From NCBI GenBank assembly GCA_039818205.1, contig JBCBUK010000003.1, forward strand, positions 32,001-96,000: a stretch of 64,000 nt of DNA, in the 5' to 3' direction. Of the stretch, positions 11,884 through 17,668 are shown piece after piece. Made by a program: the position numbers and the translations under genes. Source of the stretch: Verrucomicrobiota bacterium (GTDB lineage Bacteria > Verrucomicrobiota > Verrucomicrobiia > Opitutales > Cerasicoccaceae). Each line of letters starts with the position of its first letter. Position 1 is the first letter of the stretch. Below the pieces are notes generated by a model that was given only the letters and a program-made list of their open reading frames with translations, was not told the DNA's origin and did not search any database.

Positions 11884-13104
11884 ATGCCTAAACTAACCGA
11901 CAAACAGCGAACCCGAGCATTCATCTGGATGCTCCTCTCCGTACCACTTGGAGGGGCTGGAGTGGACATGTATCTGCCATCGCTTCCGGTCATGGCTCAC
12001 GATATGGCGGCGACTGATTTCGCAATCCAGTCGACGGTTTTGATCTATTTAATCGCTTACGGGCTCGGGCAGATTTTTGCGGGCCCATTGGTTGATGGCT
12101 TTGGTCGACGGATTCCCGCAATTCTGGGGGCCTTGCTCATGGCGGTCGCGAGCGTTGGTATTACCCAAGCGGATTCGATTGCCTTGGTTTTGGTTTTGCG
12201 CGTGTTTCAGGGAATTGGTGGCGCATTAACTGCGGTAGCAGCACGCTGCGTGGTTCCAGATTGCTACGCGGGCATTGAGCGGGTTAAGGCGGCAAACTGG
12301 ATGTCAATCGCTTGGGCATGTGGTCCGATTCTTTCGCCGGTTCTCGGCGGCTATTTACAGGAGTGGTTCAACTGGCACGCGACGTTTTGGGCGCTGGGCG
12401 GCTGGTCGATCCTGGTTATGGTGACCGCTTGTGTGCTGCTGCCAGAGACGCATCCACAAGGCCGTGATTATAGCCTTCGCTTTGATTTTGGCGGGCCGAA
12501 GGCAATGTTGAGTGATCGCACCTACCTCTATGCATCGTTGGCAATGGGCGGTGTGATTACGGTGATCTATTCGTTTGAGGTGTTGGCGCCGTTCTATATC
12601 GAGATCGATTTTAAGCATTCACCGATCTATTACAGTCGCGTTCAGTTGTGTCTCGGCCTCCTCTGGCTCGCCGGAAATTTGGCCAATCGTTTCCTGCTCA
12701 AAGTCGCTGGTGACCAGCTTCGTATTTACCTCGCAACATTGATCGGAGTTGGGGTTGCTGCCGGGATGATTGTCGGGGATCTAAGCGGATTCTACAGCTT
12801 GTTGTGGATCGCAATACCTTCCAGTATCATCTACTTTAGTGCCGCTACAATCTGGCCAAATTTATATGCCATCTGCCTGGGGCGATTTCCCAATGCTGGC
12901 GGATCGGCCAATGGATTAGTCAGCGGCATGTTCAACCTGATCAGTGCGCTGTTCTCGGTGAGCGGTGCCTTGCTGCATTCGGCGACTGCGTGGCCGCTCT
13001 GGACCCTCTATCTCGTGGGGCTTGGGGCCGCGGGTGCCATATTTGTGTTTGCGCTTCGTTCAACGCTGCAGGCCGGGATCGCCAAGATTGAAGAGGTCCG
13101 TTGA
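11884..13104 (+). CDS. Bcr/CflA-family MFS drug efflux transporter
   Basis: DMYLPSLP, GPLVDGFGRR, LRVFQG, PVLGGYL, LPET. Confidence 0.88.
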   Translation: MPKLTDKQRTRAFIWMLLSVPLGGAGVDMYLPSLPVMAHDMAATDFAIQSTVLIYLIAYGLGQIFAGPLVDGFGRRIPAILGALLMAVASVGITQADSIALVLVLRVFQGIGGALTAVAARCVVPDCYAGIERVKAANWMSIAWACGPILSPVLGGYLQEWFNWHATFWALGGWSILVMVTACVLLPETHPQGRDYSLRFDFGGPKAMLSDRTYLYASLAMGGVITVIYSFEVLAPFYIEIDFKHSPIYYSRVQLCLGLLWLAGNLANRFLLKVAGDQLRIYLATLIGVGVAAGMIVGDLSGFYSLLWIAIPSSIIYFSAATIWPNLYAICLGRFPNAGGSANGLVSGMFNLISALFSVSGALLHSATAWPLWTLYLVGLGAAGAIFVFALRSTLQAGIAKIEEVR

Positions 13105-13113
13105 GGACGATAT

Positions 13114-13145
13114 AAAACCCTGCTGGGCCGTAAGCCCAGCAAGGT
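13114..13145 (-). terminator. Intrinsic terminator closing the arsR + Cys-peptide unit
   Basis: TGCTGGGC-cgtaa-GCCCAGCA stem. It extends with a G:U pair only on the minus strand, is followed there by UUUUA, and lies 11 nt after the peptide stop. Confidence 0.75.
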
Positions 13146-13156
13146 CGATATGTTGG

Positions 13157-13231
13157 TTACTTGCAGCCACAACCGCAGCAACCACATTCGCAGCCCGTAC
13201 AGGCCTGCGGATTCGTTGTGTTTTCAATCAT
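13157..13231 (-). CDS. 24-aa Cys-rich metallothionein-like micro-protein (MIENTTNPQACTGCECGCCGCGCK)
   Basis: Hand-translated ATG(13231)..TAA(13157), with 7 Cys in the last 14 residues. Lies between arsR and a terminator and is preceded by an operator palindrome. Not in the ORF track. Confidence 0.75.
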   Translation of the reverse strand: MIENTTNPQACTGCECGCCGCGCK

Positions 13232-13247
13232 TGTTTTATCTGATTTT

Positions 13248-13267
13248 ATATAGATATCTGTCTATAT
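13248..13267. promoter_or_regulatory. ArsR-type operator palindrome upstream of the Cys micro-ORF
   Basis: ATATAGA-tatctg-TCTATAT perfect 7-6-7 inverted repeat, matching the copy at 13600-13619. Confidence 0.7.
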
Positions 13268-13281
13268 GTTGGTTAAAATAG

Positions 13282-13590
13282 TTAGCAGCAATCGCACAGC
13301 TTATGTGCCTTCTTTTGATTTGGAGCAATTTTCACGAGGAGCTCCCCGCAGCAGTTAACCACGGCTGACTGGTTAACCTGGTAGTATACCATTTTGCCGT
13401 GCTGCTCGCGGTTCACCAATCCAGCCTCTTCCAGAATTGCAAGGTGATGACTGGCGGTCGGTTGCGTGACCTGCGCCTGCTCGGCGATCTCGCCAACCGA
13501 CTTTGATTGGCAGCAGCAGAAACGTAAAATCCGCTGTCGCGTAACATCCCCAAGGGCTTTCCCAAACACGGCTGCTTGTGTTTCATTCAT
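13282..13590 (-). CDS. ArsR/SmtB-family metalloregulatory repressor, Cys-rich
   Basis: KALGDVTRQRIL, VGEIA, QPTASHHLAILEEAGLV, GKMVYY; Cys clusters CCC, NCC and C-terminal CDCC. Confidence 0.92.
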   Translation of the reverse strand: MNETQAAVFGKALGDVTRQRILRFCCCQSKSVGEIAEQAQVTQPTASHHLAILEEAGLVNREQHGKMVYYQVNQSAVVNCCGELLVKIAPNQKKAHKLCDCC

Positions 13591-13596
13591 AACAAC

Positions 13597-13624
13597 ATCA
13601 TATAGATGTTTATCTATGAGTCAA
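13597..13624 (-). promoter_or_regulatory. arsR promoter with overlapping operator palindrome (leaderless geometry)
   Basis: Minus strand: TTGACT-N16-TATGAT-N6-ATG. The palindrome ATAGAT-gttt-ATCTAT (within 13600-13619) fills the spacer. Confidence 0.7.
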
Positions 13625-15292: not shown

Positions 15293-15757
15293 ATGACATC
15301 ATCGATGAATAACTTGAACCCAAAACAGCCTATTGGACTTACCCTGGTCGAGGTGATGATCGGAATGACCATCTTGGGTATCGTCATTGGATCTAGTCTT
15401 TTGGCGGTCGTTCAGGTTAGGGAATTGAATTATCGTTCCGACGCGACGCGGGGAGCCTACACGGCTCTCAATGGTGAGCTTGAGAATTTGCGCACCCAAA
15501 CATTCGCGCAGCTTTCGGCGAGTGTTACGTCAGCAGATGCGAACGCGACATCAAGCACTTCGACATCGACTAGCTCAATTAATGGGGTCTCTTACAACGT
15601 TTCTCGAACGCTGCAGTTCGAGGATTCGGCGAAGGAGATCGTCCTCGCAAACGTAATGATCACATGGACTTTCGGCGATCGAGAATCGAGCATCACCGGT
15701 CGCTCTCTATTTACCATCAATGGATTATCAGACAAAAAGTTTAGCACGGCCAACTAG
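15293..15757 (+). CDS. Prepilin-type N-terminal cleavage/methylation protein (PilV-like minor pilin)
   Basis: Class III signal G|LTLVEVMIGMTILGIV with Glu at +5. Confidence 0.85.
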   Translation: MTSSMNNLNPKQPIGLTLVEVMIGMTILGIVIGSSLLAVVQVRELNYRSDATRGAYTALNGELENLRTQTFAQLSASVTSADANATSSTSTSTSSINGVSYNVSRTLQFEDSAKEIVLANVMITWTFGDRESSITGRSLFTINGLSDKKFSTAN

Positions 15758-15761
15758 GTTA

Positions 15762-16268
15762 TTGCGCAAAGGGTTTTCTTTTCCCGAGTTAATTATCGCG
15801 ATGGCGATCTTCGGTTTGGTAGCTGGCGGAGTTTCAGCGACTTTTATTGCATTCAGTCAAGGGCTTCGCCTCTCCATGATACACGCTGAACAGGCTGCGG
15901 ATGCTCGCTACGCCTTCGAGTGGATCAACAAAAAGCTACACTCAATCAGCGAGCCCCATATCGCTTCATCTGCTAGTTTTGAATTTACAACCGCGGATTT
16001 GGATGGGACCGCAGAGCGCATCAGGATTCATTATGACTCCAATGATGATGAGCTTAAGAGCACAGAAGATGGTAGTACAAGAGTACTCCTTGAAAATGTC
16101 AGTTCCGCCAGCTTCACCTACTATGATCGCTTTGGTGCGGTTACCAATACGTTGATTGACATCAACGCTGCCAAATTGGTGATCAACACTGAAGTCGCCA
16201 CGAAAGCCGGGGCAAACGATGTTAAGACTGAGACCTCAATAATTACTTTTCGTAATCGCACCTTTTAG
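15762..16268 (+). CDS. Prepilin-type protein (PilW/GspJ-like minor pilin)
   Basis: RKG|FSFPELIIAMAIFGLV. Probable TTG start at 15762, just after the upstream stop. Confidence 0.85.
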   Translation: MRKGFSFPELIIAMAIFGLVAGGVSATFIAFSQGLRLSMIHAEQAADARYAFEWINKKLHSISEPHIASSASFEFTTADLDGTAERIRIHYDSNDDELKSTEDGSTRVLLENVSSASFTYYDRFGAVTNTLIDINAAKLVINTEVATKAGANDVKTETSIITFRNRTF

Positions 16269-16270
16269 CC

Positions 16271-17668
16271 ATGAAAAATCGATCAGAGAATGGTTCTGTC
16301 ATTGTATTGGCAATGATCTTTGGAACAGTCGCCGTATTGGCGATAACCTACCTTGGTAGTTCACTCGCTACCGAATACAAGACGACTGTTCGATACGGTC
16401 TTGGATACACCGCCTTTCACTTGTCCGAATCCGGTGTGGAATTGGCGATGTATGCGATCACGAACGAAGAGCTAGGCGATTCTGATTGGCCGAGTACGGG
16501 TGATCAGACTTGGACTTTCACCGATAACACCCCCGTTGGGCAGTATGCTTCCAATACCCGGGTCCGTGTTATCAATAATGGTGATGGAAGTTATCTAATA
16601 ACGGCTCTTGGAAGCGTCGACCTCGGATCCAATCCAGTTCAGCGAGCGGTTGAAACCGTGGTGCAACAGGGGTTAACCGAGGAACAGGAGGAAGATGGGA
16701 CGGGCTCAGGCGCCTTTGACTATGGCTTGGTCGCTAAAGATGCGATCAAACTGAACCACAATAACCCTGGCATGAAGATCGCCAGCTACGATAGTGACGT
16801 CGATTTCGGTGTGCCCGAATTTGGAGTCAACACAGGCTTTGACGTGACCGTTGCAACGCCATCGACTACCGATAATGCGATTAAAGTTAACAATGCCTAC
16901 ATCACCGGATCAATCCGCAGTGGTGGTGGTAGCATTGACTATTCTAATAGCCACCCGCATGACCCGTTCCAAAACGCGATTGTCCTGGGCCCAGACTCAA
17001 CCCAAGCACATGGGGTTGACCTGAATCGTCTTTCAATCGACTTCGACGGTGAAGTGCCTGATCCAGATTTGCCCACCCAGGAAGGCTATAACGTTTTAAG
17101 CTTCGACCAAAATTATTGGCAAAACAACCAAGATATCGAAATCGGTTCCACGAATAGTTCCACCTGGGTTTCCACCGAACGCGTTAACACAAATGCACAG
17201 GGTACGCTGACAATTCGCGGTGAGGTTGTGATTGATGCACAACGCAACCTGAACCTGGCCGCTGATATCGTTATCGAGCCCGGAGCAACCCTGATCGTTA
17301 TGGCAGGGGAGAACATCCATGTGAATGCCAGCAGTATTGCCCAGCAGTACCCGTCTCAGTTTCAGTTGATCGCAAAATCGAACCGAGACGTCGTGCTGAA
17401 TAACTTTGATGTATTCACCGGTGTGGTGAATGCGCCGAACTCAAATGTTCGTCTGGCCGGGGTAGGTGGAACGCCCAAAAGCCAGTTTCGTGGCGCGGTT
17501 ATCGGCAAGAATATTGAGGTCACGAACGGGACCGAGTTCTACTATGATGTGAACCTGGGTGATGGTGGCTTCGACAATTCTGAAGATGGCGGCCTGGGCA
17601 CCGTTCCAGTCGGTGAACTGGAGCTAGTGAGCTGGGCAGAAGTTTCGCCTTCCCGGGCATTTGATTAA
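16271..17668 (+). CDS. PilX/GspK-like minor pilin with a large C-terminal beta-rich domain
   Basis: ENG|SVIVLAM lacking Glu5, AFHLSESGVELA, YLITALG, and C-terminal FTGVVNAPNS..FRGAVIG..YYDVNL..SWAE. Confidence 0.8.
   Translation: MKNRSENGSVIVLAMIFGTVAVLAITYLGSSLATEYKTTVRYGLGYTAFHLSESGVELAMYAITNEELGDSDWPSTGDQTWTFTDNTPVGQYASNTRVRVINNGDGSYLITALGSVDLGSNPVQRAVETVVQQGLTEEQEEDGTGSGAFDYGLVAKDAIKLNHNNPGMKIASYDSDVDFGVPEFGVNTGFDVTVATPSTTDNAIKVNNAYITGSIRSGGGSIDYSNSHPHDPFQNAIVLGPDSTQAHGVDLNRLSIDFDGEVPDPDLPTQEGYNVLSFDQNYWQNNQDIEIGSTNSSTWVSTERVNTNAQGTLTIRGEVVIDAQRNLNLAADIVIEPGATLIVMAGENIHVNASSIAQQYPSQFQLIAKSNRDVVLNNFDVFTGVVNAPNSNVRLAGVGGTPKSQFRGAVIGKNIEVTNGTEFYYDVNLGDGGFDNSEDGGLGTVPVGELELVSWAEVSPSRAFD

Follow-up and report, generated by a model that had tools for sequence, protein, structure and literature searches.

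A 24-residue cysteine-rich micro-gene behind an ArsR-family repressor in a Verrucomicrobiota bacterium, probably a repressor-metallothionein-type pair tied to arsenic

The stretch of Verrucomicrobiota contig JBCBUK010000003.1 analysed here (64,000 nucleotides; hereafter the window) carries on its minus strand a very short gene for a cysteine-rich peptide, placed directly behind a gene for an ArsR/SmtB-type repressor. The following features were located:

13597..13624, minus strand: predicted sigma70-type promoter of arsR (TTGACT, 16 nt, TATGAT), from a promoter scan
13602..13617, no strand: operator 1, ATAGA-N6-TCTAT, within the -35/-10 spacer (27.6 bits)
13590..13282, minus strand: ArsR/SmtB repressor, 102 aa, above the PF01022 and NF033788 cut-offs
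13250..13265, no strand: operator 2, ATAGA-N6-TCTAT, between the arsR stop and the micro-gene (30.4 bits)
13231..13157, minus strand: micro-gene, 24 aa, 7 Cys, no His, without a Shine-Dalgarno (SD) sequence, from translation
approximately 13118..13144, minus strand: terminator-like hairpin with a U-rich tail, 11-12 nt after the micro-gene stop, from folding against shuffled sequences

This layout agrees with the original prediction, which had proposed a 24-aa, seven-cysteine open reading frame (ORF) under an ArsR repressor, with a palindrome in front, a terminator 11 nt behind and neither an efflux pump nor a reductase in the unit. The ORF translates to MIENTTNPQACTGCECGCCGCGCK*, its ATG was measured at 50 nt downstream of the arsR stop, the palindrome ahead of it proved to have a twin before arsR, and beyond the unit comes a Bcr/CflA-like MFS gene in convergent orientation. 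The peptide consists of a 10-residue Cys-free head followed by the pattern C-x2-C-x-C-x-CC-x-C-x-C, giving 29% cysteine encoded by three TGT and four TGC codons. Among the 23,489 ATG-initiated ORFs of 15-35 aa surveyed in the 4.85-Mb genome, eight hold at least six cysteines and only the micro-gene holds seven. The peptide matched no Pfam or NCBIfam profile and, at an E value of 10, no PDB sequence, searches whose power is low at 24 aa, and exact-sequence look-up of four family peptides retrieved none from about 15 billion called proteins; the family is therefore invisible to current annotation. A 92-aa plus-strand ORF overlapping the micro-gene (12965-13243) was rejected as a shadow, antisense stops occurring in 14 of the 15 frames of five relatives.

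The A-rich leader to which the original prediction drew attention is present but is not evidence: AAAACAATG, with one mismatch allowed, occurs 14 times in the window against 17 expected, and it was rejected as a signal. An SD-like motif is absent from the window copy, the sole such case among 26 copies; in this genome such motifs stand before 9.7% of 1,141 long genes whose start is clear, so that the missing motif is unremarkable. The micro-gene of four same-order relatives, unlike the window copy, retains a strong SD sequence. Without the strong ribosome-binding site that its relatives have, the window copy is best described as a candidate for translation.

Conservation was examined by alignment search in 401 genomes of the same order, five of which contain a repressor orthologue; all five also carry the micro-gene (20-25 aa, 7-9 Cys), 50-66 nt behind arsR and in differing gene neighbourhoods. 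The unit was found in none of the five same-genus genomes searched, and the single repressor orthologue in a sample of 401 genomes from the phylum was the window's own. The five same-order loci and one metagenome locus form a clade (six rows, support 97) with the micro-gene in all six. The wider repressor subfamily, mostly Anaerolineae with about 50% ArsR identity, was sampled as the best 80 of 297 genome candidates plus the best 80 of 520 metagenome candidates; its loci are mutually related, and counts taken from them are not independent. In this sample, a micro-gene ORF lies within 200 nt downstream at 26 of 146 evaluable loci (window included), compared with control rates of 64 in 6,215 random windows (1%) and 1 in 25 unrelated ArsR loci; 17 of 163 family loci with less than 300 nt downstream were dropped from this count. 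The expectation that a Cys-rich ORF would be conserved behind arsR orthologues is thus borne out, in five of five same-order orthologues and, less regularly, across the family. Six additional copies sit further downstream, behind arsM or hgcA (best 80 of 297 plus best 80 of 520), with 7 of 13 distal matches set aside by eye as non-members. On a poorly resolved tree, the presence of the micro-gene changes at least 15 times, which suggests that it has often been gained, lost or moved.

The 28 complete first-slot peptides (20-31 aa) share a composition of 28% Cys, 22% Gly, 17% Asp plus Glu and 2.5% Phe, Tyr and Trp, with no His. Cysteine content is kept while cysteine spacing varies; the longest cysteine run is two to three, and in an alignment of six peptides the only invariant columns are M1 and two cysteines. 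For nine disjoint micro-gene pairs picked by ArsR identity, mismatches numbered 44, 38 and 69 at codon positions 1, 2 and 3 (P=0.005), and 9 of 14 gaps were multiples of three. A pN/pS ratio of 0.22 was obtained in seven pairs, a value biased low by picking the pairs at 60% or greater peptide identity, and 12 of the 45 aligned Cys codons in the seven pairs swap TGT and TGC; the window's own copy has no close partner. Judged by sequence, the micro-gene is a real, conserved and selected coding gene. Low mass, a high share of cysteine in CxC and CC motifs and few aromatic residues, the features by which metallothioneins are defined compositionally, were all found in the predicted peptide, which is in that compositional sense a metallothionein.

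Two copies of the palindrome ATAGA-N6-TCTAT occur in the window against 0.01 expected, and none of 100 shuffles reached two. Scanning the genome with a matrix built from 191 sites of other loci returned these two strong sites only, the next match scoring 13.5 bits. Both sites flank arsR, and the peptide gene is therefore the repressor's only apparent target; in four relatives the pattern likewise lies around arsR only, apart from one stray match. The regulon of the window's clade accordingly appears, from its predicted operators, to consist of arsR and the peptide gene. The proposal that the peptide is the only effector holds to this extent, but the cell has more than this peptide against arsenic, two other ars-type operons being present in its genome.

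Across the family, an operator with at most one mismatch follows arsR within 130 nt at 24 of the 25 micro-gene loci and at 101 of the 125 remaining loci (best 80 of 297 plus best 80 of 520); none was detected behind 25 unrelated arsR genes or inside the arsR coding stretch tested. In the same sample (best 80 of 297 plus best 80 of 520), 102 of 127 family loci have a perfect TTGACA immediately ahead of the upstream operator, and a -35 element matching at least five of six positions precedes the downstream operator in only 1 of 27 micro-gene loci. A second promoter at operator 2, where the promoter scan of the window also found none, is thus unsupported, and at most a weak one may exist. The good -35 element upstream and its near absence downstream point to a single transcript that starts at the arsR promoter; operator 2 would then act as an auxiliary site or roadblock. 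The -10 element ends 7 nt before the arsR ATG, and the arsR mRNA is therefore probably leaderless. Furthermore, AGGAGG stands behind operator 2 in 23 of the 27 micro-gene loci compared with 8 of 96 ordinary-gene loci (best 80 of 297 plus best 80 of 520), as would be expected for a product needed in quantity.

The hairpin behind the micro-gene has a predicted folding energy of -25.9 kcal/mol (z -5.9 on the minus strand and -4.0 on the plus strand; matched in 0 of 200 shuffles), and it is probably shared with the convergent MFS gene, which ends at 13104. It was not among the predictions of a simple terminator scan of the window. A blind search for an operator, SD sequence and start codon in series gave one new match in 400 genomes of a single class, a 29-aa ORF with seven cysteines between arsR and arsM. 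Matches to operator plus SD on 18 viral stretches were rejected as chance, a Cys-rich micro-ORF following in none of the 18.

Among its named homologues the repressor is nearest to Rubellicoccus protein P0003 (76%), and SrnR is its closest solved structure and sequence match (28-29% identity). Across 165 ArsRs (best 80 of 297 plus best 80 of 520), Cys80 and Cys81 are kept in all 165, Cys26 in 163, Cys27 in 162 and Cys25 in 136. In the predicted structure (pLDDT 92), cysteines 25-27 lie in the loop after helix 2 and cysteines 80-81 in helix 5. Neither the alpha5 DxHx10Hx2(H/E) motif nor the alpha3 CxC motif of Zn sensors was found in the 165 ArsRs, where His exceeds 30% at positions 48-49 only and no column between positions 29 and 79 exceeds 10% Cys. 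The repressor also contains none of the As(III) sites sought, namely alpha3 C-(V/A)-C, alpha5 CCx5C, the CgArsR site and an N-terminal CC; three As(III) sites and the Zn/Cd motifs were taken for this comparison from the consulted part of a 2024 review (PMC11672702). By its motifs, then, the Cys-pair site matches no As(III) or Zn site compared. A C-x-CC tail (window 13282-13300) recurs in clade loci L002, L003, L198 and L199 and is present in about 5% of the 165 members. Among 149 new proteins from a broader search at the level of 50% representatives, 18 have the CC/CC signature; the ESM Atlas gave generic ArsR clusters only for the repressor and unnamed clusters for a 107-aa neighbour encoded at related loci. 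This neighbour (L161:400-723), mostly encoded directly before arsR and without a Pfam or NCBIfam match, occurs in 11 of the 27 micro-gene loci and in 3 of the other 112, for the most part within one clade (best 80 of 297 plus best 80 of 520).

The genes that the same repressor subfamily precedes elsewhere indicate its likely ligand. In 139 loci (best 80 of 297 plus best 80 of 520), the first gene after the repressor is arsM in 84, the micro-gene in 27 and hgcA in 21, the remainder being arsI/cadI (3), GGDEF (2), an arsP-family permease (1) and one unassigned gene; slot genes were classified by tblastn to sampled representatives, and 26 of 165 loci with less than 500 nt of flank were dropped. 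Of the 27 micro-gene loci, 15 run on into arsM or arsP, with a third operator between in 11 of the 15, and 13 of the 27 also hold arsM (best 80 of 297 plus best 80 of 520). A slot filled elsewhere by arsM, arsI or arsP, together with hgcA, points to trivalent arsenic, and the original list of As, Cd, Zn, Cu and Hg is narrowed with weight on this species. The link is provided by Chloroflexota loci with about 50% ArsR identity to the window's; the arsenic-handling placement is seen in the subfamily and not in the window's clade, where none of six loci has an ars gene beside the micro-gene. ArsI and ArsP act on methylarsenite. This, together with the vicinal Cys pairs used by MAs(III)-selective SpArsR according to the consulted part of PMC13236881, makes MAs(III) a fair candidate for the inducer.

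In Chloroflexota, hgcA stands directly behind the same repressor and operator in 21 of the 139 loci (for example L040:1285-2274, L079, L082 and L088). It occurs anywhere in 38 loci (best 80 of 297 plus best 80 of 520), none of which has a first-slot micro-gene. ArsR-like genes near hgcAB and arsM are described in the portion of PMC7438021 consulted.

The window's genome contains further arsenic genes at a distance. At G000:C2:563.9-565.7 kb (L196), a canonical C-V-C arsR, an arsC-like gene below the NCBIfam cut-offs and a MIP channel gene stand in a row, to judge from their order likely an ars operon using an aquaglyceroporin-type exit. At G000:C3:103-106 kb (L191), an arsS radical SAM gene (above its cut-off), an arsM-like gene with a Cys-pair tail and an MTAP-like phosphorylase gene form a probable arsenosugar operon. 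Relative G008 has a separate arsR-arsC-acr3 set, again with a canonical C-V-C ArsR. A second, canonical arsenic repressor in both genomes means that the repressor of the micro-gene could sense another ion or another arsenic species. No acr3, arsP, arsH or arsB was found in the window's genome, the arsB result being weak as the E. coli control failed, and a PF03960 match is Spx/MgsR-like.

Several side observations were made at these and related loci. An arsS/arsM-like pair similar to that of L191 is present in G008 (L236). In G142, a full arsM (L235, G142:C85:903-1709) lies behind a sigma-factor-like gene, not behind the repressor of the micro-gene. A gene for an AhpD/CMD-like peroxidase-related protein is divergent from arsR at L111:2345-2887 (minus strand) and L198:851-1408 (minus strand), and may share the operator. 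Elsewhere in the window, three genes stand in a row at 15293-17668 (plus strand); two of them carry weak N-methylation (pilin-like) motifs and the other has DUF7305.

The most likely explanation, given these sequence features, is that the micro-gene's product is a very small peptide which binds arsenic, or else some other thiol-loving metal, and the unit is probably a repressor-metallothionein-type pair tied to arsenic. We give a probability of roughly 55% to the complete reading, a two-gene autoregulated unit in which an arsenic-released repressor controls a sequestering polythiol peptide. The ORF, its conservation and selection, the operators, the mini-regulon and the hairpin are read from sequence, and from these we infer repression, co-transcription, inducer, translation, binding, stoichiometry and protection. 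An ArsR dimer would occupy operator 1, inside the arsR promoter, and operator 2, ahead of the micro-gene; trivalent arsenic, the likeliest inducer, as arsenite or methylarsenite, would bind Cys26/27 and Cys80/81 and release it. A short arsR-micro-gene transcript ending at the hairpin would then be made, and the peptide, without a fixed fold, would hold about two As(III) with three of its seven thiols each and buffer the ion as a ribosome-made, phytochelatin-like sink. Loose Cys spacing with constant Cys content suits such a sink better than a protein-binding partner. A broader version is tentative and falls somewhat short of even odds: that the peptide is a gene-encoded, phytochelatin-sized arsenic sink and an overlooked regular member of ars regulons in at least two phyla, under an ArsR with an undescribed Cys-pair site that perhaps senses methylarsenite and also controls mercury-methylation genes, and that it makes up the whole regulon in the window's clade.

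The same layout and sequestering role could serve a soft metal (Cu(I), Cd, Hg or Zn), which we regard as unlikely. Fungal Cu-thioneins match the peptide in size and Cys count, arsenic is already served by another repressor in the genome, and the sensor has four conserved cysteines, an arrangement that in the partly consulted literature may favour Zn, Cd or Pb. Moreover, hgcA fills the slot of 21 loci, and the ArsP-family permease matches weakly, below the cut-off, as an SO_0444 Cu/Zn transporter. Against this, arsM dominates the slot (84 of 139; best 80 of 297 plus best 80 of 520), no Cu/Cd/Zn ATPase or CDF pump is the first gene in any of the 139 loci (one unassigned), and the sensor lacks the alpha5 His motif and the alpha3 CxC. 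It is less likely again that the peptide is a carrier or co-sensor which passes arsenic on to either ArsM or the repressor, as in the SrnR/SrnQ system. SrnR, the nearest structure, depends on a Ni-binding partner, arsM occurs in 13 of 27 micro-gene loci and an unlinked arsM-like gene in the window's genome; however, the identity to SrnR is low, the repressor has invariant Cys pairs of its own, and in the 112 of 139 loci that lack a first-slot micro-gene, most with none nearby (best 80 of 297 plus best 80 of 520), it has no need of the peptide. The six aligned peptides, invariant in so few columns, also present no conserved binding face.

The window copy may alternatively be decayed or barely translated within a family that is real. 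Being the only SD-less copy of 26, with no -35 element before operator 2 and with the unit absent from all five same-genus genomes, it invites this reading, but the ORF, operators and hairpin are intact, all seven cysteines are kept and SD sequences are scarce genome-wide, which makes decay improbable. Marginally more improbable is a Cys-sensing leader peptide, in which stalling of ribosomes at Cys codons would matter and the peptide itself would not. Polycysteine short ORFs act in this way in mycobacteria (bioRxiv 10.1101/834739, part consulted), a hairpin follows nearly every copy, a same-strand long ORF lies within 400 nt in 17 of 25 evaluable loci and the strong SD of most copies would fit. 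Yet no same-strand gene follows the copy in the window or in G008, and 8 of 25 loci have no long one; the folding model keeps the hairpin at 0.98 with the whole ORF here and at 0.7 or more in 19 of 27 copies, so that no competing structure was seen. The short Cys runs, the six copies outside the first slot and the third operator in 11 of 15 arsM/arsP loci argue the same way. At the window's locus the leader-peptide reading would survive only if RNA were made beyond the hairpin. Least likely of all is a sink for redox or persulfide species, controlled by an ArsR that senses thiol redox state. In its favour are the positions of the cysteines (behind helix 2 and within helix 5), the sensing of persulfide or peroxide by some ArsRs, and the AhpD/CMD-like gene that runs divergently from arsR in L111, with a similar one in L198; but this neighbour is missing from the window and the slot genes belong to arsenic and mercury methylation.

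If the preferred arsenic-sink reading is true, sequestration would take its place beside efflux, reduction and methylation among the arsenic defences that are wired genetically; a 2025 source (PMC12093948), in the part consulted, states that no intracellular arsenic sequestration gene had been found within ars operons. Few bacterial metallothioneins have been characterised, according to the consulted part of PMC13578184. Bacteria would then possess a metallothionein-like peptide less than half as long as the canonical ones, and ArsR proteins a new sensing site, one also standing before hgcA in 21 loci (best 80 of 297 plus best 80 of 520). Were the ion Cu or Cd, a new bacterial micro-metallothionein family would still result, of somewhat less interest. 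The candidate lends itself to direct tests: a 24-mer is within reach of synthesis, and the repressor is defined, as are its operator and target. A full-text literature search, with supplements and most subscription papers beyond its reach, returned no description of the micro-gene family; supplements of metagenomic metallothionein or small-protein catalogues may be a source of members.

Among known systems, the SmtB-SmtA and BxmR-BmtA pairs of cyanobacteria resemble the unit in placing an ArsR/SmtB repressor beside a small Cys-rich gene, with sequestration as the likely output. The smtB and smtA genes are divergent, whereas arsR and the micro-gene stand in tandem; BmtA and SmtA use His among their ligands, and none occurs in the 28 complete family peptides. 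Canonical bacterial metallothioneins have about 60 aa and about 16% Cys (PMC13578184, Table 1, part consulted), unlike the 24 aa, 29% Cys and missing Pfam match of the micro-peptide. Length, Cys share, His and regulator motif all fail, so the peptide is not a member of the BmtA family, and its distinctness from SmtA/BmtA stands as first proposed. The claim of an undescribed metallothionein class stands in part: the peptide would be new for bacteria only, since fungal family 8 Cu-thioneins of the same size, about 26 aa with seven cysteines, are already known from Neurospora crassa and Agaricus bisporus (PMC4755600, part consulted). They indicate that a peptide of such size can work as a metallothionein; size alone is alike, the fungal pattern CXC-X5-CXC-X3-CXC-X2-C differing by eye from the pattern here, and the fungal peptides are eukaryotic and copper-specific.

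EcArsR, AfArsR, CgArsR and SpArsR have the same fold as the repressor, which shares vicinal Cys pairs with AfArsR and SpArsR; the described As(III) sites (C-(V/A)-C, CCx5C and N-terminal CC) are unlike its own. In Pseudodesulfovibrio mercurii ND132, ArsR2 is an arsenic-responsive regulator of hgcAB with a four-Cys site (bioRxiv 10.1101/2022.10.17.512643, part consulted). Set beside the micro-gene repressor by that partial description, it is alike in having cysteines on the coil after helix 2 and in preceding hgcA, and differs in its CxC pairs (47/49 and 86/88) where the micro-gene repressor has CC pairs. The mycobacterial polycysteine attenuators, as far as their description was consulted, have in common with the unit an unannotated, Cys-rich small ORF with RNA structure behind it; they come first and control the genes downstream, whereas the micro-gene is the last of its unit. 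Phytochelatins are short polythiol chelators of As(III) and Cd, made enzymatically from glutathione. Their likeness to the micro-peptide is one of functional analogy only, the micro-peptide being encoded by a gene.
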